From Candidatus Omnitrophota bacterium (GTDB taxonomy: Bacteria; Omnitrophota; Gorgyraeia; Gygaellales; UBA12090), in assembly GCA_030674475.1 (NCBI GenBank), contig JAUSCZ010000017.1, positions 46,264 to 110,263 of the forward strand: a DNA stretch of 64,000 nucleotides. The letters run 5' to 3'. Positions 9,135-48,452 of the stretch are shown here, in pieces (the first letter of the stretch is position 1; each line of letters begins with the position of its first letter). The translations under genes and the position numbers were made by a program. The notes beneath the pieces are model-generated. The model did not search any database, was not told where the DNA came from, and saw only the letters and a list, made by a program, of their open reading frames with translations.

Positions 9135-10565
9135 CTATTTACTTCTGGCGAGCATTTTTGAAGAGAGCATCCCTACCGTAGATATGAACCCTTCTTCTCT
9201 TAGATGCTGTTTTACCATAACATATCTTCTTTGCCAATTCTCCACAAATTCAGAAATACAAAACATAATACCCAAATTCCGGCGCGCGGTCATCTCCGCT
9301 ATCTTTTTCATCTCTACTAATTCATTATCCGAGAAATCTGTCAAATTAACTAAAAATGTCGTCCGCATTTCACCTAAACTTTCTAAATACCTATCCTCGT
9401 CATGCCTAAGCCTGCCCATCGTCTTTGCGATAGAGTATAACTCTGTACCTGGATATGGCGTAGCATAGAAGAAACGATAAATAGGAAGGCGCGTCCTTTT
9501 TATAAAATCAAGCGTCTCTTTTATTGTTTCTTTCGTTTCTCCCGGCATACCGAAAATAAACGAACCGGATAATTTTATCCCTGCTTTACGCGTCATTTCT
9601 ATAGCTTCTTTTGCTTGCTTCACCAAAACGCGTTTTTTCATCCTGTCTAACGCTGTCTGCGCTCCGCTTTCAAAACCGTAACTAAGCTCAACGCAACCGG
9701 CCTTACGCATCTTCATAAGCAAACTCTCATTTACCAAATTTACCCTTCCGGAAGCAGACCATTTTATATTTATCTCTTGCGCCAACATCAAATCGCAAAA
9801 TTCCATCACTTTCTTTTCATTAATCAGAAACAGATCGTCTGAAAAATTTATGAAATTAACATTGAATCTGAGTTTTAACTGTTTGATTTCTTCAACGATG
9901 CTCTTTGCAGACCTTGAATACACGTTCCTCCCAAATGGATGAGAACAAAACGTACACTCATAAGGGCATCCCCTAACAGAAGATATGTTCATTTGACGCA
10001 GGCCAAAGCTAGTTGACGAAATAATTGAACCATTTAAATAAACTTCTACCGGAAATAAATCCCAGGCTGGAAAAGGAAGTTCATCCAAATTGGCTATCCT
10101 TTCTCTGCTGGAAGTCCTAACTATATTGCCGTTATCTTTATAAAAAATACCCCTGACATTCCTTAAGCTTCCATTGCATTTTATTGTATGCGCCAAATCC
10201 TTAACCGTCAGCTCCCCTTCGTCTATAACCGCTATATCAACATGGCTATTGGATAGCAATAATTCGGGATGAGCGGTTGAAACCATATTACCGGCTATTA
10301 TGCGGGAATTAGGTTTATATTCTTTAATCAGAGCCGCCAGCCACTTTACGTATTTATACGTAGAGCTCAAGCCCCCGATACCTGCAATGTCAAAATCGCT
10401 GTCCCGTACTACACGCTCAACTTCATCTTCAGAATAACCAAATCCATTAATATCTAAAACGCTTACGTCAAAACCATCCCCCCTAAGAACACTGGCTATA
10501 TAACCTAAGCCTATTGGAAATGTGGTCGGTAATCTGCATTTGGGATTAATTAGCAATATACGCAT
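9135..10565 (-). CDS. B12-binding radical SAM protein
   Basis: N-terminal B12-binding-like domain (MRILLINP...), rSAM cluster motif RGCPYECTFCSHP, and a C-terminal rSAM TIM barrel. Confidence 0.8.
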   Translation of the reverse strand: MRILLINPKCRLPTTFPIGLGYIASVLRGDGFDVSVLDINGFGYSEDEVERVVRDSDFDIAGIGGLSSTYKYVKWLAALIKEYKPNSRIIAGNMVSTAHPELLLSNSHVDIAVIDEGELTVKDLAHTIKCNGSLRNVRGIFYKDNGNIVRTSSRERIANLDELPFPAWDLFPVEVYLNGSIISSTSFGLRQMNISSVRGCPYECTFCSHPFGRNVYSRSAKSIVEEIKQLKLRFNVNFINFSDDLFLINEKKVMEFCDLMLAQEINIKWSASGRVNLVNESLLMKMRKAGCVELSYGFESGAQTALDRMKKRVLVKQAKEAIEMTRKAGIKLSGSFIFGMPGETKETIKETLDFIKRTRLPIYRFFYATPYPGTELYSIAKTMGRLRHDEDRYLESLGEMRTTFLVNLTDFSDNELVEMKKIAEMTARRNLGIMFCISEFVENWQRRYVMVKQHLREEGFISTVGMLSSKMLARSK

Positions 10566-38171: not shown

Positions 38172-38528
38172 TTACGGCGAAGTTTCAACATTCTGATAAG
38201 CTAATAACATAGTCTTATATGTTTCCAACTCCTCTTTGAGCCTTTCGTATTCGCGGGTTTTCCAGTCAAGGAACTGCTGGATAAGCTGAAATTTTATCCT
38301 AATTCCCTGAGGGGTGAGCAGATACATATAGCTTAACTTATTCTTGGCATTCTTGAAGTTTTTTGCCTCTATTATGCCCTTGTCAATGAGGGCGTTGAGG
38401 AAGTAGTTAATCTTGCCCAGGCTTATTTTGAGTTTCAGGGCCAGGTCGCGCTGGGTTATGGCGGGATTTTGCTCTAACTCTTTGATAACAGAGAGGATTT
38501 TTTCGTGGTGCAATATGTCGGATTTCAT
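38172..38528 (-). CDS. MarR-type winged-helix transcriptional regulator (EPS-locus-associated family), copy 1
   Basis: MKSDILHHEKILSVIKELEQNPAITQRDLALKLKISLGKINYFLNALIDKGII is the wHTH. The true start is cat at 38526-38528, and the longer ORF-track start is an extension. 90% identical to copy 2. Confidence 0.65.
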   Translation of the reverse strand: MKSDILHHEKILSVIKELEQNPAITQRDLALKLKISLGKINYFLNALIDKGIIEAKNFKNAKNKLSYMYLLTPQGIRIKFQLIQQFLDWKTREYERLKEELETYKTMLLAYQNVETSP

Positions 38529-38574
38529 AGAAAAACTATGGGTCGATGGTCTATGGTTCATCTTTTTAAAATTC

Positions 38575-38958
38575 TTAAAGCAACCGTATAATCCCTTTTT
38601 CAAAATTAATCGTCAACTTGAAATTCTTCAAAAAGTCTAAGCCTAAAAGTCCATCTACAAAACCCTCTTCAGGTAAATCATGGCAAGCGACTTCTAAATT
38701 CTTCATTGTCTTACCTAACGCTTTAATACTTTTTAAACTTACCACTGGAACAATTTCAATTCCACTCCCGGTTACAATACGAGTACGGGAAGGGGAACCT
38801 CCCGGATCGCAGCCAATAGCTTCAGCTGCCTCAAAGGGAATCATAGTTCGCGAACAACCCGTGTCTAACGCTAAACGCAAGGTCCGTTCGGCATTCTTCC
38901 TAATTGTGCCCTCTATAATGATTATGGGAAATTTATGGTTAAAAGAAGTCTTTGACAT
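38575..38958 (-). CDS. Retropepsin-like (clan AA) aspartic protease
   Basis: LALDTGCSRTMIP contains the D-T/S-G catalytic motif in a retropepsin-like context; 127 aa. Confidence 0.7.
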   Translation of the reverse strand: MSKTSFNHKFPIIIIEGTIRKNAERTLRLALDTGCSRTMIPFEAAEAIGCDPGGSPSRTRIVTGSGIEIVPVVSLKSIKALGKTMKNLEVACHDLPEEGFVDGLLGLDFLKNFKLTINFEKGIIRLL

Positions 38959-39188: not shown

Positions 39189-39221
39189 TTTTCTTTACCT
39201 CCTGATTTAAGTTAAGAAAGT

Positions 39222-39330
39222 ATTTTGCTCTAACTCTTTGATAACAGAGAGGATTTTTTCGTGGTTTAAGATGTCGGATTTCATGGGAAAATCAAAGGTC
39301 GATAGTTTATAGTCAATAGTCAATGGTCCG
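39222..39330. repeat. Cassette-junction repeat, copy (partial: regulator-5'-end homologue + heptamer tract, no hairpin)
   Basis: ttttgctctaactctttgataacagagaggatttt...atgtcggatttcat followed by gtcgatagtttatagtcaatagtcaatggtcc. Homologous to 38440-38565, 39923-40106, 42530-42665, 46133-46262 and 47168-47305. Confidence 0.7.
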
Positions 39331-39431
39331 GAAAAAAATTACTTCTTTAAATAATTTCGAAAGGCGTGCAGCATTTTTGAGATGTCTTCACAACACTTAT
39401 AAAATAAATCAAATTCTGTAGATTTTCTGTG

Positions 39432-39891: not shown

Positions 39892-39907
39892 AGTTTACTA
39901 TCCCTCA

Positions 39908-40054
39908 TTAAACGATTTTATCCTTGTAAGTGCGATAAATCGCACCGCTACCGCGAATTTTCCGAATAAGTTTGCGCTGGGTTATAGCGGGGTTTTGCTC
40001 TAACTCTTTGATAGCAGAGAGGATCTTGTCGTGGTTTAATATGTCGGTCTTCAT
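39908..40054 (-). CDS. Truncated divergent paralogue of the MarR-EPS regulator (~48-aa mini-ORF) embedded in junction repeat
   Basis: MKTDILNHDKILSAIKELEQNPAITQRKLIRKIRGSGAIYRTYKDKIV. The first ~30 aa match the regulator N-terminus. The divergent tail LIRKIRGSGAIYRTYK is shared with the copies at 46133-46262 and 47168-47305. Confidence 0.4.
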   Translation of the reverse strand: MKTDILNHDKILSAIKELEQNPAITQRKLIRKIRGSGAIYRTYKDKIV

Positions 40055-40106
40055 GGGAAAATCAAGGGTCGATAGTCTATAGTCGATAGTCAATAGTCAA
40101 TGGTCC
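39923..40106. repeat. Cassette-junction repeat, full copy (hairpin GTGCGATAAATCGCAC + regulator-5' homologue + (GTCNATR)5)
   Basis: The hairpin at 39930-39945 has a 6-bp stem and a TAAA loop. Then comes cgctaccgcgaattttccgaataagtttgcgctgggtta..ttttgctctaactctttgata.cagagaggat. Then the heptamer tract gtcgata gtctata gtcgata gtcaata gtcaatg. Confidence 0.7.
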
Positions 40107-40173
40107 AGAAAAAAATTACTTCTTTAAATAATTCCGAAAGGCATGTAGCATTTTTGAGATGTCTTCGTAACGC

Positions 40174-40473
40174 TTATAAAAAAATGCCTTTAATTTTGTT
40201 TTTGGTTCCCGCTTTAGCGGGATAACACAGGCTAATATTGATCTTTTCATATAATGTTTCAGGGGCAATGTCAGCGCCATTTGGCCAGGCAATTGTACCG
40301 CCTTCAATTTTTGCTTTTTTGAAGAATTGTAAATTCTTTAATGGCTTAAAAATATATCCTTTCCTAATGTACTCTATAAAATTCACATCTCCACCTTTAC
40401 CATCATCAAACATAATATAATAAACATAATTATTTTTATACTTAATTGTTTTTACTTCATTCATATCCCACAT
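40174..40473 (-). CDS. DUF2442 family protein (second copy)
   Basis: [17 protein letters not shown]-terminal motif. Confidence 0.55.
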
Positions 40474-40475
40474 AT

Positions 40476-40620
40476 CTCACCTCAAGTTAAAGGGATAATT
40501 TCTCTTATTGTTTTGCCTGCTCTAGCTAATTCCCAATCTTCTTTCAATTCTGTGGAATGGAGATCTATCCATTCCCTGAATAATGTTACCTCTTTAGATA
40601 GTTGCGAATTGTTACCACCT
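40476..40620 (-). pseudogene. DUF4160 gene remnant (C-terminal fragment only)
   Basis: The minus-strand translation ...FREWIDLHSTELKEDWELARAGKTIREIIPLT* resembles a DUF4160 C-terminus. No N-terminus or start codon is present. Confidence 0.35.
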
Positions 40621-40771
40621 CATTCAAAGAACCTATTGATATCTGGATAAAACGCGATAAATCTGTATCGGAATTCCTGCCTTCACCTTCAGCGATATTT
40701 AAACTGATAGAAACTGCGGCTCTGTTTCACTGGCGAACTTGACTGATTCTTGCCATCCCGTTTTTTCTCTA

Positions 40772-41170
40772 TCCTGCTAAAGCAGGTCTTAGCAGTTTTT
40801 TAATTTTTGTAATAAATTTTCTGGCGTCTTCAAGAACACTTTCCGCCTCTTCGGCTGAACCTGTGTAAAATGGCTCATAATCTCCGTCCTCTCTTAAGTC
40901 CTTATCGCGTGAGAGTATTTAGTAATATTCTCTTGGAAGTATACCGGTTTTAACAAAATGGAGGCTAATCATTGTCTGTAAACCAGAATGTGTTTTAGCG
41001 TAAAATCCTTTTGAAGCCAATAGAGCCATTCCAGCGTGATATACCATATAATACCCTCTTGAGATAGCATCCTCATACATCTTACTTTCATAAAGCTTCT
41101 GCGCGGCCTGAAGCTTGCGCTCCGCCTTCTCTATAAGTTTCGTTATTCTTAACCTTAGTTTCTCATCCAT
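40772..41170 (-). pseudogene. HEPN-domain toxin gene interrupted by in-frame TAA (HEPN of MNT/HEPN pair)
   Basis: ORF 40919-41170 encodes ...YYMVYHAGMALLAS...LPREYY, then TAA (40919-40921). The same frame continues for 49 codons as ILSRDKDLREDGDYEPFYTGSAEEAESVLEDARKFI..., which is the canonical HEPN C-terminal R-x-x-x-DY region. Confidence 0.6.
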
Positions 41171-41490
41171 AATATTTTACCTTCATTCTCTATATTCTTC
41201 ATAAATGGCGTCTCTAAGCCCTTTAAGTATGCGTATTGGCTAATATCGTAAACCTTTGTAGATATAGGCCGGCCGTATTTTAAGACAAGGGAAGCGGCGA
41301 TTCTGGTAATCTTTTTCAAAAAGTCTAACCTATTGCCCGAAGCAACTATCAAAAAATCTATATCAGATTCTTTGTTTAATTGATCCCTGCTGGCAGAGCC
41401 AAAAAGAATTACCGCTTGAATTTTTCTTTTGTATTTTTTTACTACTTGCCGGACAAAACTATCAATTTCCTTTTCATCTTGTTTGTTCAT
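41155..41490 (-). CDS. Minimal nucleotidyltransferase (MNT) antitoxin-type protein
   Basis: LFGSASRDQLNKESDIDFLIV is the GS..D.D nucleotidyltransferase motif. Confidence 0.75.
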   Translation of the reverse strand: MNKQDEKEIDSFVRQVVKKYKRKIQAVILFGSASRDQLNKESDIDFLIVASGNRLDFLKKITRIAASLVLKYGRPISTKVYDISQYAYLKGLETPFMKNIENEGKILWMRN

Positions 41491-41597
41491 CTGTTCCCTT
41501 GCCTATCAGGAATCAATGTTGTCAATAAGTCCTCACTGAATTATCCATTTTTGGGTATTTGTTCACGGTCTGAACGCATACTTACAGAAAATTTATA

Positions 41598-41616
41598 TTA
41601 TCATATTTTATGATAA
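41598..41616. promoter_or_regulatory. Palindromic putative operator TTATCATAtttTATGATAA upstream of MNT/HEPN operon
   Basis: Perfect 8-bp inverted arms with a 3-bp spacer, ~110 bp upstream of the MNT start at 41490. Confidence 0.3.
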
Positions 41617-41689
41617 AATCAAGGGTTTTTTAGCTTTACTTGTTACTTGTAACAGTGAACGGAGGAAACTTGCAATTTTTCCCCTCACC

Positions 41690-41755
41690 TAACCCCTCCC
41701 CGCCTCCCCTTGGTAAGGGGAGGATTTCTTACCTCTCCCACAAGGGGAGAGGGAA
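41690..41755. repeat. GC-rich tandem hairpins (CCTCCCC-ttggtaa-GGGGAGG; CCTCTCCC-acaa-GGGAGAGG)
   Basis: Two adjacent stem-loops in a 350-bp non-coding gap. Related to the motif at 50189-50224. Confidence 0.5.
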
Positions 41756-41845
41756 TAGCGGGAGAAGATTTTCCCCTGCTTGGTGAGAAGCTGTAAAAAA
41801 ATACCTAATTATGGCGTAAGTCAGGCTTATTTTGTATTCAAATTT

Positions 41846-42130
41846 TTATTTCCTAATCGTCCAAAAATCAGCAGCTTGGGTTTCTAAATATTCGTAGGGC
41901 ATAGTGAAGTAGCCGCATTTACCCCAAGTCTTGCCCCAGGAATTTCGGATTAAGAAACATTTTTGTTTTTGGTTGTATCCGACTGCTAACACCGCATGTC
42001 CGCCCACCGGCCGTTCATTCTTTTTAGGCATAGGGACAATGCCGGTGCGTTTGACTTTTTCGCTCTCAAAGGATTCATAAACTGTAAAACCGAAGGTAAA
42101 AGGATAACCATCTGCCAGACAAACGAGCAT
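41846..42130 (-). pseudogene. Papain-like (C1) cysteine peptidase, C-terminal fragment
   Basis: GGHAVLAVGY...IRNSWGKTWGKCGYFTMPYEY carries the His/Asn half of the catalytic triad. The N-terminal Cys-containing half is absent. Confidence 0.55.
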
Positions 42131-42149: not shown

Positions 42150-42245
42150 CTTCTCCATAATTCTTCCTGTTGTTTCTCCATTAATTTTCCTATCTCATCA
42201 CTATGGTCATAATAACAAGAAAGGGCATCGTAACTTACGTAATCT
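42150..42245 (-). pseudogene. DUF433 gene remnant (C-terminal fragment)
   Basis: Minus-strand translation YVSYDALSCYYDHSDEIGKLMEKQQEELWRR* aligns to the C-terminus of the DUF433 protein at 46815-47153 (SAIYDALSYYYDHADEIERLMEKNREDQWKK). Confidence 0.4.
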
Positions 42246-42628
42246 TAGTACGTTGCGTCCACATTGCTTAATTTAGGTAAAACTTCGGCATTTTGATAAG
42301 CTAATAACATGCTCCTGTAGGTTTCCATTTCTACCTCAAGCCTTTCGTATTCGCGGGTTTTCCAGTCAAGGAACTGCTGGATAAGCTGAAATTTTATCCG
42401 GATTCCCTCTGGCGTTAACATATACATATAGCTCAACTTATTCTTGGCATTCTTGAAGTTTTTGGCCTCTATTATACCCTTGTCAATGAGGGCGTTGAGG
42501 AAGTAGTTAATCTTGCCCAGGCTTATTTTGAGCTTCAGGGCCAGGTCGCGCTGGGTTATGATGGGGTTTTGCTCTAATTCTTTGATAACAGAGAGGATTT
42601 TTTCGTGGTTTAATATGTCGGGTTTCAT
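42245..42628 (-). CDS. MarR-type winged-helix transcriptional regulator (EPS-locus-associated family), copy 2
   Basis: MKPDILNHEKILSVIKELEQNPIITQRDLALKLKISLGKINYFLNALIDKGII...; near-identical to copy 1. Confidence 0.65.
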   Translation of the reverse strand: MKPDILNHEKILSVIKELEQNPIITQRDLALKLKISLGKINYFLNALIDKGIIEAKNFKNAKNKLSYMYMLTPEGIRIKFQLIQQFLDWKTREYERLEVEMETYRSMLLAYQNAEVLPKLSNVDATY

Positions 42629-42694
42629 AGAAAAACTATGGGTCGATAGTCGATGGTTCAGGAACCGTTTTTTAAGAATTTTCGCGCGAATTTG

Positions 42695-43120
42695 CTATCC
42701 ATCCCTATGGGACAGTAACATTAAAAATTGCCGCGGAGTTAAAATCGATACCCCAGACCAGACTTTTAGCTGTAAAATATGAGGATCTCCAGTAATAATG
42801 TATTTAGCTGCAGAAGCTAAAGCACAAGCCAAAACCTTGTCATCGCTTGGATCATCCTTAACCACCGAGTCTATTTTTATATCTGGATATAACGCTGCAA
42901 TATCTGTAATTCCGGCAAATAAATCTTCGCAAGATATATTATGTTTTTTCAAGCGGGAGAAGAATTTTGGCCGTTTTAAAACATCTTTTAACTCTTCCAG
43001 AAAAGCAGGTGTCATGCAAAGAGTAAAAAGCCCCTTTTCTACCGCCATTAATAATTCATGGGAAGGCCCTTACCAAAGAAGCGCGGAAATAAGCACATTT
43101 GTATCTATAACGATTTTCAT
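42695..43120 (-). pseudogene. PIN-domain toxin (TIGR00305-like) interrupted by in-frame TAA
   Basis: From ATG (cat 43118-43120) the sequence reads MKIVIDTNVLISALLW, then TAA (43070-43072), then GPSHELLMAVEKGLF...ITGDPHIL...ILTPRQFL. The ATGA overlap with the upstream AbrB-type antitoxin is retained. Confidence 0.6.
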
Positions 43121-43347
43121 CTTTTTTCTTTACGATAGGCGTGGACCTCTTTCACTATTTCTTTTAAAGATAAAGGCTTTTCTTTAATACGATCAGCTAT
43201 TTCAGAAAGCTTAGAAGGATTAATCTTTTTTACAATAAATGTATCCCCGTCTACAAACCAAGCAATTTTATCAGAAGGCCTAAAAATAGATTGCGCGATT
43301 TTAGGGAGAACTAACGTTCCATTCTTATCAATTTTCAGTGTTTGCAT
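43117..43347 (-). CDS. AbrB/MazE/SpoVT-type antitoxin
   Basis: MQTLKIDKNGTLVLPKIAQSIF...GDTFIVKK looped-hinge helix pattern. Confidence 0.65.
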   Translation of the reverse strand: MQTLKIDKNGTLVLPKIAQSIFRPSDKIAWFVDGDTFIVKKINPSKLSEIADRIKEKPLSLKEIVKEVHAYRKEKR

Positions 43348-43673: not shown

Positions 43674-44519
43674 TTATCGTTTGACAAAATTTTCCAGAAA
43701 TCCGATAATTTTTGGATAAAGAGGCAAGGCCTCTTGAATAAACTTCTCTAAGCGGCCGTAAAGAATCTCCAAATACTCATGGGCAAGGATATTTCTTAAA
43801 TTAGCGAACTTGGACAGCCCTCTTGCTTCTGTTTCGCTTAAACCCGCTAAAAATCCGAAATTAAACAGCGCCTCTTCATAAGTCCGCGGCATTAGCTTTT
43901 TCTCGGAAGCTAAGGTTATTTTAGCGATGTCTATAGTAGCGTTGAGAATATTCTCTGCCCATCTTTCAATGCTACGCCTTTTCATTTTGTCTTTCTGATA
44001 ATCGTCAAAAGTCACCATTTGACAGCTGGGAGTCTCTTTAATCTCTAAATCTAAAAATTGCAGCCTTACTAACAATCTTTCCTTTTGCTCCACGGTAAGC
44101 GACCGGGCTTGCTTATAAATCCGATAAAAATCTTCAGAAAATTCCAAGAAATCTTCTGTTTCCGTGCTCGCCTTTAAATAAGTTTCCAAGTGCAATCTTT
44201 CATCCTTAATCACTAAAGGAATTCCAGTCTTAATTACGCAGGAAACTAAAGACGCCGGCGCGTAATTTAAACAAACCAAATCAATATCTTTATGAATAAT
44301 CCCGGAAATATCCGAGTAAACTTCACTTTCATTTTCATAATAAATTTTATTTTCCGGAGCTTCTGACTTTTGAGGCACGAAATAAACCGCTACATCAAAA
44401 TCTGATTCCGCCGTCTGCCGGCCTTCGGAATAAGAACCAAAAACAAAAGCCATTAAAACTTCTTTTCTTTTTAGAAAATACTCTTTTAATGATTCTATTG
44501 TATCTTTTAAATTATCCAT
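43674..44519 (-). CDS. Fused nucleotidyltransferase (MNT) - HEPN (DUF86/HepT-like) protein
   Basis: N-terminus FGSYSEGRQTAESDFDVAV (MNT); C-terminus LRNILAHEY (R-x4-H HEPN motif). 281 aa in one polypeptide. Confidence 0.6.
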   Translation of the reverse strand: MDNLKDTIESLKEYFLKRKEVLMAFVFGSYSEGRQTAESDFDVAVYFVPQKSEAPENKIYYENESEVYSDISGIIHKDIDLVCLNYAPASLVSCVIKTGIPLVIKDERLHLETYLKASTETEDFLEFSEDFYRIYKQARSLTVEQKERLLVRLQFLDLEIKETPSCQMVTFDDYQKDKMKRRSIERWAENILNATIDIAKITLASEKKLMPRTYEEALFNFGFLAGLSETEARGLSKFANLRNILAHEYLEILYGRLEKFIQEALPLYPKIIGFLENFVKR

Positions 44520-44595
44520 TTTGAAATGTCTTCACAGCGCTTATAAAGCAAATCGGGCACAGGGAGAATCGCTGGTTAAAAGTGCAGCTTCAACA

Positions 44596-44826
44596 TTACA
44601 CCTTCTCCAATATGCGCACTTCTTCTCCGTCCATCTGTTGCGCGGCAAATGCAAGCGCTGCCAAGACAGACTCCTTTTTTAAAGTCGGATATTCTTTCAG
44701 GATATCTTCAACCGTCATCCCGGAAGCCATACATTGGAGAATGAGCGCTACGGAAATACGCGTTCCCTTAATAATCGGCTTCCCGGAAAGAATCTCCCGG
44801 TCACAAGTTATCCATTTCTTAATCAT
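44596..44826 (-). CDS. DUF433 family protein
   Basis: ILSGKPIIKGTRISV motif typical of DUF433. Confidence 0.65.
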   Translation of the reverse strand: MIKKWITCDREILSGKPIIKGTRISVALILQCMASGMTVEDILKEYPTLKKESVLAALAFAAQQMDGEEVRILEKV

Positions 44827-46000: not shown

Positions 46001-46132
46001 GCTTTGATACTGGTTAGTTCTACTCTGGGCGTTGGAGGATTAATTGCCTTTCATCAGTTAAACCCAAAGTCCTGCTAACAACGGTCTGACATCTTCGTCA
46101 AGATAAAGCTTTACTTCTTCCACGGCTCTTCC

Positions 46133-46262
46133 TTGTAAGTGCGATAAATCGCACCGCTACCGCGAATTTTCCGAATAAGTTTGCGCTGGGTTAGGGCGGG
46201 GTTTTGCTCTAACTCTTTGATAACAGAGAGGATTTTCATAGAAAAACTATGGGTCGATGGCC
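46133..46262. repeat. Cassette-junction repeat copy (hairpin + regulator-5' homologue, internal deletion, 2 heptamers)
   Basis: The hairpin gtgcgataaatcgcac at 46139-46154 is followed by cgctaccgcgaattttccgaataagtttgcgctgggttagggcggggttttgctctaactctttgataacagagaggatttt, then cat and gggtcgatgg. It encodes the mini-ORF MKILSVIKELEQNPALTQRKLIRKIRGSGAIYRTYKEEPWKK. Confidence 0.7.
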
Positions 46263-46274
46263 TGGAGACTCGTA

Positions 46275-46520
46275 TTATACAGCTCCTATAGTAGTTATCT
46301 CAACCATATGATGTTTTTTACGGGCATCAGATACAATCTCTTCTATCTTCACTGCCACAGCATCCCCAATCCAGTCAGCGCCGCACTGTGAACATACGGT
46401 AGCTGGGACATCCCTTACCACTACTACCCCAAAGCCCAAGTCCGCGGTAAAAGTAGTCTTCCCGGATTTTTTAGTTCCCCCGCAGAGAGGACATCTGCTC
46501 GCGTCTGATTCAATCACCAT
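46275..46520 (-). CDS. YgiT/MqsA-type zinc-finger antitoxin-like protein
   Basis: CPLCGG...CSQCG zinc ribbon. Confidence 0.6.
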   Translation of the reverse strand: MVIESDASRCPLCGGTKKSGKTTFTADLGFGVVVVRDVPATVCSQCGADWIGDAVAVKIEEIVSDARKKHHMVEITTIGAV

Positions 46521-46833: not shown

Positions 46834-47153
46834 CTATATTTTCCGGGAAAAATACCTGGTAAGCCGCAAAACACTTGTTCTTTCTTCTTCCACTGATCTT
46901 CCCTGTTCTTCTCCATTAATCTTTCGATTTCATCAGCGTGATCGTAGTAATAAGAAAGGGCGTCATAAATGGCGGATAAAGAAAGATGCGGAAATTCCCT
47001 AGCTAATTCCTCAGGGAGAATTCCCTCTTTGACTATGTAAAATACAACAGACCGGACAGGAAAACGGGTGCCCTTAATTATAGGCTCCCCTCCCTGAATC
47101 CTCGGATTGTGTGTTATATAATAATGATTTACTTTCTCTATAACCTCGCTCAT
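46815..47153 (-). CDS. DUF433 family protein
   Basis: IQGGEPIIKGTRFPV motif. Confidence 0.65.
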   Translation of the reverse strand: MSEVIEKVNHYYITHNPRIQGGEPIIKGTRFPVRSVVFYIVKEGILPEELAREFPHLSLSAIYDALSYYYDHADEIERLMEKNREDQWKKKEQVFCGLPGIFPGKYRWIEKN

Positions 47154-47167
47154 TATGTCACCTCCTG

Positions 47168-47305
47168 GTGAGTGCGATAAATCGCATCGCTACCGCGGAT
47201 TTTCCGAATAAGTTTGCGCTGGGTTAGGGCGGGGTTTTGCTCTAACTCTTTGATAACAGAGAGGATTTTATCGTGGTTCAATATGCCGATTTTATGAATA
47301 TTCAT
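47168..47305. repeat. Cassette-junction repeat copy (hairpin variant + regulator-5' homologue, no heptamers)
   Basis: gtgcgataaatcgcatcgctaccgcggattttccgaataagtttgcgctgggttagggcggggttttgctctaactctttgataacagagaggatttt...; the mini-ORF ends in ...LIRKIRGSDAIYRTH. Confidence 0.7.
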
Positions 47306-47363
47306 CTGTTCAGGGCTTGAACATATATTAACAAAAGTATCGCAATTGTCAAGAGGAGAGTCT

Positions 47364-48452
47364 TTAAGATGGTATTTCCATGGACAAATCTTTTAAAGTA
47401 GCAACCTTTTTTAAGTGAGTCACCTTTTGTTTTATACCTTGATAGGCGGCAGAATTAGATTTTAGAGAAAGCAAGGAATTCTTTATTTCCTCAACTGATT
47501 CTACCTTAATGCCGGCACCGGATTTACAGATTACTCTTTCATTAGATGTCTCCAAGCCAGGGATGCTGGAGAAGAAAATCATTGGCAGGCCTTTGGCTAA
47601 GCTTTCGCTGATGGTCAGGCCGCCGGCTTTGGTGAGAACAACATCAGAAACCGACATTAGTTCATCAACATAATCAATCAAGGGGTAAATTTTAACATTC
47701 ATGAGATTTAGCTTGGTCAGGCGGTCAAAGAGCTTCTGGTTCTTGCCGCAGATAACTAATAATTGAATATCACCGGCTAAGGCCTGGACAATTTCCTCTA
47801 TGGGGCCGATGCCTACGGCTCCGGTCATAATTAAAGCGGTGAATTTTTCCGGGTCAACTCCTAACTTTTGGGCCGCTGTTTTTCTATCTGAAGGTAGATA
47901 AAATTTCTCTCTTACCGGAATGCCATAAACTTTTATTTTATCTTCTATTATTCCTTTTGTCAATAAGCAGTCTTTCACATGATCGCAGGAAGCTATGTAG
48001 GTATCCACGCCTTCTCCTATCCAGTAGGGATGCAGGGTGTAATCAGTTATAATGGTTATCAGGCGAAAAGCATATTGGGGGTATTTTTTCTTGAATATAC
48101 TAAGAACACTGCTGGTTAAAAAGTGGGTGGAAATAACAACGTCGGGTTTTTCTTTTTTTAATAGATCAACAAACGGCTGGCAAGCGAGATAATCAGAGAG
48201 GAGGCGAAAATAATTATTAGCGAAGAAGGACGATAGGCGGTAGAGAAGATACCATGCCCAGGGAAACTTGGTAATAAGGAAGATATAGCCCTTGGAATAT
48301 AAAAACTTAACCACACAGTTAGAATAGTCCAAGATGTCAATAAGCTTTAGGCTTAAGTCGAGCCGGGTTTTTTTAAGATATTCGTAGAGGGCTTCCGCGG
48401 CTTTTTGGTGGCCGGCGCCGGCGGAGGCATAGACGATAAAGACTTTCTTCAC
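47364..48452 (-). CDS. GT28-family glycosyltransferase (MGDG-synthase / UgtP-like)
   Basis: N-terminal IVYASAGAGHQKAAEAL motif typical of MGDG-synthase-like GT28 proteins, with a C-terminal GT-B domain. Confidence 0.65.
   Translation of the reverse strand: MKKVFIVYASAGAGHQKAAEALYEYLKKTRLDLSLKLIDILDYSNCVVKFLYSKGYIFLITKFPWAWYLLYRLSSFFANNYFRLLSDYLACQPFVDLLKKEKPDVVISTHFLTSSVLSIFKKKYPQYAFRLITIITDYTLHPYWIGEGVDTYIASCDHVKDCLLTKGIIEDKIKVYGIPVREKFYLPSDRKTAAQKLGVDPEKFTALIMTGAVGIGPIEEIVQALAGDIQLLVICGKNQKLFDRLTKLNLMNVKIYPLIDYVDELMSVSDVVLTKAGGLTISESLAKGLPMIFFSSIPGLETSNERVICKSGAGIKVESVEEIKNSLLSLKSNSAAYQGIKQKVTHLKKVATLKDLSMEIPS

Follow-up and report, generated by a model that had tools for sequence, protein, structure and literature searches.

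A very probably genuine and recent nonsense pseudogene of HEPN in a Class II HEPN/MNT module of an Omnitrophota bacterium

Does the single in-frame TAA that interrupts the HEPN gene of a two-gene HEPN/MNT module in a Candidatus Omnitrophota genome mark a true loss of this gene, an error in the sequence, or a stop codon with a role of its own? The module is located on a 225-kb contig of a metagenome-assembled genome (MAG), of which a stretch of 64,000 nucleotides (the window) was analyzed here, and both the minimal nucleotidyltransferase (MNT) and the truncated HEPN have been deposited at NCBI. As set out below, we consider it very probable that this HEPN gene is a genuine and evolutionarily recent nonsense pseudogene in a Class II HEPN/MNT (PF05168/PF01909) module of Omnitrophota.

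The MNT gene (41490..41155, minus strand) had been reported as intact (41155-41490) in a first-pass annotation made from the nucleotide letters alone, and this assessment is borne out by an uninterrupted open reading frame (ORF) of 111 amino acids with Pfam matches to Polbeta (1.4e-10) and NTP_transf_2 (3.6e-9). Its translation retains the GSX10DXD motif as G31-S32-(10 residues)-D43-I-D45, which is invariant in seven alleles; the protein is identical to NCBI entry MDO8748084.1 and 93-99% identical to six intact alleles. The HEPN gene (41170..40769, minus strand; PF05168, AF0298-type, Class II) comprises 133 codons and a terminal TAG, its normal stop, at 40771..40769. Its frame opens at 41170, ahead of the MNT stop, and the two genes overlap by 16 nt. 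The minus-strand translation of HEPN reads MDEKL...GILPREYY-TAA-ILSRDKDLREDGDYEPFYT...LAG-TAG. Read through the TAA, it matches PF05168 over residues 11-125 (profile positions 3-116 of 117, E 9e-20, 71.4 bits at a cut-off of 22), and because this match spans the TAA, the reading frame past the stop reflects homology and not chance. Both genes together form a conserved module (41507..40761, minus strand) that in BLAST comparisons shows 94-98% identity to related loci, while searches with its flanks found these to be unrelated among loci, which gives the module the appearance of a cassette-like mosaic. With dN/dS values of ~0.1-0.17 for HEPN and ~0.03-0.05 for MNT, the intact alleles of both genes evolve under purifying selection. 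A separate observation concerns synonymous divergence from alleles of Hainich groundwater (compared with contig L008), which at dS ~0.5 for MNT and ~0.12 for HEPN is about four times higher in MNT; this contrast suggests a recombination breakpoint inside the module.

The premature TAA occupies HEPN codon 84 (40921..40919, minus strand), where every intact relative has GAA (Glu), and both DNA alignments and the polarised list of differences identify the lesion as a single G>T on the coding strand at 40921. Translation and the ORF listing confirm the single in-frame TAA at 40919-40921 noted previously. The ORF listing contains a translatable fragment of 83 aa (41170..40919, minus strand), which corresponds to NCBI protein MDO8748083.1, annotated as 'HEPN domain-containing protein', and this fragment is followed by an untranslated 3' remnant of 49 codons plus TAG (40918..40769, minus strand). 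No ORF is listed in the frame of the remnant, nor does it contain an in-frame ATG, GTG or TTG at which translation could re-initiate. The earlier description of these 49 codons as open and conserved-looking holds, as residue 129 (P or S) is the only position at which they depart from the intact relatives.

The first-pass annotation had left a sequencing error as an option, and the difference is indeed a single base in a metagenome-assembled genome, with obvious homopolymer errors in a related long-read contig (L001). That the genome really carries GAA and an intact HEPN gene is nevertheless very unlikely. The change is a substitution outside any homopolymer, and the independently assembled Logan contig L004 (run SRR13727527) is 100% identical to window positions 39955..41702 over 1748 nt, TAA included, so that two assemblers (MAG contig and Logan L004) agree on the base. 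Since this separate re-assembly has the same TAA, an assembler or polishing artefact is an unlikely source of the stop. Other proteins of the window, too, were found only in SRR13727527; the read set behind L004 is therefore probably that of the MAG, and not an independent sample. An exact-sequence look-up of the repaired window allele showed it to be absent from a collection of 15 billion proteins, which also speaks against an error. Furthermore, random errors are unlikely to strike toxin genes repeatedly, and the genomic island around the module (described below) contains a second toxin gene with a nonsense codon and a clean toxin deletion, the latter also seen in Logan contig L024.

Comparison with relatives allows the original codon to be identified. 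A homologue database search with HEPN found 12 sequences, the closest of which (P0001, 133 aa, 95% identity) has Glu at the position of the stop. The 90% cluster of P0001 includes five full-length alleles (P0001, P0014-P0017), all with Glu84, in addition to the 83-aa product of the window. The module is 94% identical at the DNA level to the Hainich groundwater contigs L001, L002, L003 and L008 and 97.9% identical to L010-L015; GAA is present at codon 84 in the DNA of L002, L003, L008 and L010-L015, as it is in all of the six intact HEPN relatives with 93-95% amino-acid identity. Both comparisons that had been proposed earlier, an alignment of homologues for the expected codon and an inspection of related loci, thus gave a consistent result: the one-step ancestor GAA is found in every intact relative, and all of the contigs compared, L001 included, have GAA where the window has TAA. 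A scan of GTDB representative genomes recovered only two distant relatives (66% and 35% identity) and no orthologous locus.

When changes were polarised with the Hainich alleles as outgroup, the lineage of the window showed six derived changes in the module, of which two are in MNT (K6E and one synonymous change) and four in HEPN (one synonymous change, T42M, S57Y and E84*), but none in the 49 codons past the stop. The missense changes T42M (41046, minus strand) and S57Y (41001, minus strand) are private to the window HEPN. Because there is no window-derived change past the stop, the nonsense event is recent. The first-pass reading of a recent nonsense inactivation is in agreement with this and with the GAA of the intact relatives. 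The ratio of nonsynonymous to synonymous changes in the HEPN lineage is 3:1 for the window versus 1:4 for L010, with too few sites for significance, and relaxed selection on the window HEPN, considered on the basis of these ratios and of dN/dS, was dropped for this reason.

Other lesions of HEPN were found among the related loci. In L007 the gene carries a +1 frameshift near codon 29, and in L006 its 3' part is replaced, in both cases next to an intact MNT; each of these loci is represented by a single low-coverage Logan contig, and the lesions could include errors or chimeras. L001 was considered as a mirror case, with MNT broken and HEPN intact, and was rejected, as all three of its indels are changes in homopolymer length: an Illumina contig obtained from the same site, L008, is identical apart from these three indels and its MNT is intact. 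More generally, homopolymer-length indels in L001, a 112-kb ENA contig (contig_5608), at 9664-10409 and elsewhere break MNT and a GT2 gene, both of which are intact in L008, and the apparent frameshifts of L001 should not be trusted.

What has been lost from HEPN can be judged from an AlphaFold model of the intact relative P0001 (pLDDT 88), in which helices comprise residues 3-28, 32-52, 61-73, 80-93 and 106-132. In a Foldseek search with this model the top PDB entry was AF0298 (2hsb; TM 0.82, rmsd 2.2, 33% identity), and 2hsb was also the best PDB sequence match of HEPN in a phmmer search (E 3e-13). Among ten HEPN homologues H61, R93, E94, D97 and Y98 are invariant, and the motif loop takes the form R93-E-D/N-G-D97-Y98, without a His. 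The stop had been placed one residue into the conserved region ahead of this motif; it is not directly adjacent to the motif but nine codons short of R93, in the opening part of helix 4. The 83-aa fragment retains helices 1-3, H61 (codon 40990..40988) and four residues of helix 4, and the remainder of that helix is lost together with helix 5 and the R93-E-x-x-D97-Y98 loop; the codons of R93 (40894..40892, minus strand) and Y98 (40879..40877, minus strand) as well as D97 and helix 5 lie in the untranslated remnant. Judged from the model, the truncated HEPN would be unable to form the helical bundle or the active/acceptor site and would hence be non-functional.

One could still imagine that the 83-aa fragment is functional, as an MNT-binding or regulatory partner or as a dominant-negative factor against related HEPN proteins, and that the stop represents adaptive remodelling. 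Start codon, coupling to MNT and His61 are all kept, MNT is conserved, the product is annotated as a protein by NCBI, and the private substitutions T42M and S57Y might be taken as further signs of remodelling. However, three of five helices cannot complete a HEPN bundle, there is no relative with a naturally short form ending at the same point, and the other short alleles are broken elsewhere by different lesions, a pattern that looks like decay. The remnant past the stop, in turn, would be unchanged only because the event is recent. We thus regard a functional fragment as highly improbable and maintain that the gene is a pseudogene. Two PDB entries may be mentioned in relation to the lost loop: 9xbd and 9xbc, two recent entries of a PF05168-type 'HEPN domain-containing protein' that were also matched by the window HEPN, are distinguished by a Tyr-to-Phe exchange where they align with Y98, and someone may thus be studying the equivalent Tyr in a Class II HEPN. 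A literature search for a paper on 9xbd and 9xbc found none.

The MNT/HEPN module is part of a 9-kb island (about 38.2-47.4 kb) of small cassettes of toxin-antitoxin (TA) type, all on the minus strand, which is inserted in a cluster of sugar-nucleotide and glycosyltransferase genes. Its cassettes encode DUF433 together with DUF4258 and a zinc-finger protein; AbiEii; DUF433 alone; a fused MNT-HepT; an AbrB-like protein with PIN_3; HTH_24; MNT/HEPN; DUF2442; DUF4160 with DUF2442; and an Asp-protease pair. Two further toxin genes of this island are disabled. The PIN_3 toxin gene (43120..42695, minus strand) has an in-frame TAA at codon 17 (43072..43070), which is CAA (Gln) in L001 and L007 (alignment; tblastn), and read through the stop it matches the Pfam profile over positions 1-113 of 115 (1.4e-21). 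The gene upstream of it (43347..43117, minus strand) encodes an intact 76-aa partner, found as an identical protein in 51 blocks of the collection and matching L001 at 74/76 residues; a Pfam search of this partner gave no match, and from its sequence we call it, tentatively, AbrB/SpoVT-like. In the third case the DUF433 antitoxin (44826..44596, minus strand; Pfam 5e-23) is intact, but only seven codons remain of the DUF5615 PIN-like gene that follows it as its partner (44596..44576, minus strand; ATG TTG AAG CTG CAC TTT TAA), after an internal deletion of ~345 nt when compared with L001 3746-4114; here the window and Logan contig L024 are 100% identical. In the syntenic Hainich relative (L001/L008), the HEPN, PIN_3 and DUF5615 toxins are all intact. 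A scan of the window for other genes split in the same frame returned mostly adjacent genes and antisense shadows and was not discriminating.

Several other features of the island deserve mention. The fused MNT-HepT (44519..43674, minus strand; 281 aa, Polbeta plus HepT-like) contains both GSX10DXD and RX4HXY (RNILAHEY), is 92% identical to L001 at the DNA level and is similar to FhepTA, a group of fused type VII systems published in 2026 (PMC13000451). A gene fragment at 41846-42130 corresponds to profile positions 136-204 of 220 of the papain-family Peptidase_C1, and fragments at 40586-40726 and 40482-40619 represent a piece of a 23S_rRNA_IVP four-helix bundle (positions 36-79 of 106) and a DUF4160 C-terminus, the latter directly upstream of a solo DUF2442 gene. 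These three fragments around the module, which lack complete ORFs, show the island to be a patchwork of rearranged cassettes.

With two in-frame TAA codons in toxin genes, a different decoding of the stop has to be considered. Reassignment of stop codons, already dismissed in the first-pass annotation, is ruled out because, of the 48 long ORFs on the minus strand, 22 terminate in TAA (18 in TGA and 8 in TAG). Programmed readthrough or recoding of TAA, which would supply full-length HEPN and PIN proteins in low, regulated amounts, might be suggested by the presence within 2.2 kb of two toxin genes in each of which the frame is perfectly preserved past an in-frame TAA. Yet all relatives have ordinary sense codons (GAA and CAA) at the two sites, TAA is a one-step nonsense codon from either of them and at the same time the commonest terminator of the long ORFs in the window, and the contexts of the two stops differ (TAC-TAA-ATA versus TGG-TAA-GGG). 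In addition, a tRNA scan of the window found zero tRNA genes, hence no suppressor tRNA there, and an Rfam scan of the window gave no match. Readthrough is therefore barely conceivable as an explanation, and the two TAA codons are best read as nonsense mutations.

A palindromic operator at 41598-41616 had also been proposed for the module. The palindrome itself (TTATCATA-N3-TATGATAA, 41598..41616) is present 108 nt upstream of MNT, but a role as operator was rejected: the palindrome is absent from all related loci, it is located outside the module, and palindromes of its size are common in the window, where 26 with 8-nt arms were counted versus about 10 in composition-matched shuffles. Homology to related loci starts just 17 nt upstream of the MNT ATG, and neither MNT nor HEPN contains a DNA-binding domain. 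The 340 nt upstream of MNT (41507-41845) are unique to the genome of the window and include an odd G/C-rich run of short inverted repeats (CCTCCCCTT/AAGGGGAGG and similar) at 41680-41760. Since the relatives carry a repeat with an HTH_24 fragment at this place, the native upstream region of the module appears to have been replaced in the window.

This repeat belongs to a conserved element of 130-195 nt that is found ahead of most cassettes, always in gene orientation, with copies at 38448-38637, 39207-39410, 39906-40100, 42548-42694, 46111-46299 and 47153-47392. It also occurs in L001, L008 and L010-L023; all of the related loci retrieved contain it, and they come from at least eight metagenomes. 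The element is composed of 2-4 tandem GACTATN heptads, an ATG and the 5' part, about 35 codons, of an HTH_24 winged-helix gene, which in truncated copies is followed by a conserved tail ending in the palindrome GTGCGAT-TT-ATCGCAC; only two copies in the window (42628..42245 and 38603..38172) run on into a full-length HTH_24 gene. A function as integron attC was considered and rejected, as there is no attC-like hairpin in the repeat (folding z -0.5 to -1.6 versus shuffles, both strands) and the ten flanking ORFs that were scanned encode sugar and glycosyltransferase enzymes but no integrase. Its candidate roles are those of a recombination substrate, a shared promoter/operator or an insertion target.

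The disabled toxins and the repeat could be combined into a broader reading, in which the HEPN stop is a symptom of a selected, lineage-specific disarming of the cassette array, and the array is perhaps an undescribed integrase-less cassette-exchange system. HEPN, PIN_3 and DUF5615 would then have been knocked out with every cognate antitoxin kept, the retained antitoxins could serve as anti-addiction or anti-defence factors, and the inter-cassette element of 130-195 nt would act as a recombination or regulatory site. We consider this reading unlikely. In our view the HEPN stop is an ordinary case of TA erosion within an accessory island, and neither recoding nor a new mechanism is at work.

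Class II HEPN/MNT modules (COG2250/COG1708) were first predicted by Makarova et al. 2009 (PMC2701414) and defined by Yao et al. 2020 (PMC7641770), and by the latter definition the pair described here belongs to this class (PF05168/PF01909). The MNT gene with its GSX10DXD motif is located 5' of a small, overlapping HEPN gene; HEPN matches PF05168, lacks RX4HXY and has a conserved Tyr (Y98) after an Arg (R93); and the module is mobile, patchy in occurrence and variable in its context. In contrast to the intact pairs of the class, the HEPN ORF is broken here by a nonsense codon, and the pair is thus a decayed member of Class II. It also differs with respect to its host: this Omnitrophota bacterium is a mesophile from groundwater, while most of what is known of the class concerns thermophiles and archaea. 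A similar affiliation is indicated by AF0298: in the AF0298-type family (HEPN-T) described by Anantharaman et al. 2013, the His of the motif is missing, and a different active site could be built around a conserved His located upstream (PMC3710099). Likewise, the window HEPN lacks the His of Rx4-6H and has the Arg as well as a conserved upstream His (H61); AF0298 itself, however, is intact and archaeal, with a putative function only.

With the type VII HepT/MntA systems (Class I) the pair shares gene order, protein folds and the MNT motif, but it is not a member of this type. HEPN matched PF05168 alone and neither of the type VII families PF01934 and PF08780, the RX4HXY motif is absent from the HEPN alignments, and MNT scored 35.2 bits against the NCBIfam MntA_antitoxin equivalog, below the cut-off of 60. 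In type VII systems (oligo)AMPylation takes place on a Tyr adjacent to the loop that contains the Arg; this is also the most likely mode of working here, although given the different HEPN family and the missing RX4HXY it would be type VII-like by analogy only. Yao et al. pointed out that Class II is without biochemistry and needs validation as a TA system (PMC7641770), and our literature search on Class II found neither published biochemistry nor a demonstration of HEPN toxicity or its neutralisation by MNT. The terms 'toxin' and 'catalytic motif' in the first-pass annotation are thus assumptions, as Class II HEPN proteins lack RX4HXY and toxicity in this class is untried (PMC7641770). By analogy with type VII, HEPN as the toxin and R-x-x-x-DY as its catalytic motif would be a reasonable working model.

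A single G>T has turned GAA (Glu84) into TAA in the distal gene of a bicistron, so that translation now ends after 83 residues; because MNT lies upstream of the broken HEPN, it would be unaffected, with no polarity to be expected. If the working model taken from type VII HepT/MntA applies, MNT would normally keep HEPN in check by nucleotidylating its Tyr98. Loss of HEPN would then be harmless, while a loss of MNT first would not be, and the observed pattern would correspond to the usual two-step erosion of chromosomal TA modules, in which the toxin goes first. We infer such toxin-first erosion for this HEPN/MNT pair. Chromosomal TA systems often pseudogenise, and Belot et al. 2026 reported that chromosomal TA modules cluster in small genomic spots and that toxins are inactivated before antitoxins are lost (PMC13617665). 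The situation described for Photorhabdus in that study is similar in that TA cassettes are clustered and intact copies exist in related strains, and here, too, toxin genes, three in number, are disabled by nonsense codons or deletion next to intact antitoxins. In contrast to our comparative analysis of an uncultured Omnitrophota MAG, the Photorhabdus study dealt with type II systems and included experimental validation.

On its own, the HEPN pseudogene matters little. Its practical value lies in a corrected annotation, as the public record lists a pseudogene as an ordinary 83-aa HEPN protein. For Class II HEPN/MNT modules it provides one clean natural example of toxin-first decay, which hints, weakly and indirectly, that HEPN and not MNT may be the dispensable and potentially harmful partner in this class. 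Among the by-products of the analysis, two are of most interest: three toxins of a single island were lost in a coordinated manner, and a conserved repeat precedes most cassettes. The island, with three disabled toxins and an inter-cassette repeat that is conserved across many groundwater metagenomes, is maybe more useful than the pseudogene and could serve for studying the shuffling and erosion of TA cassettes in ultra-small, uncultured bacteria.
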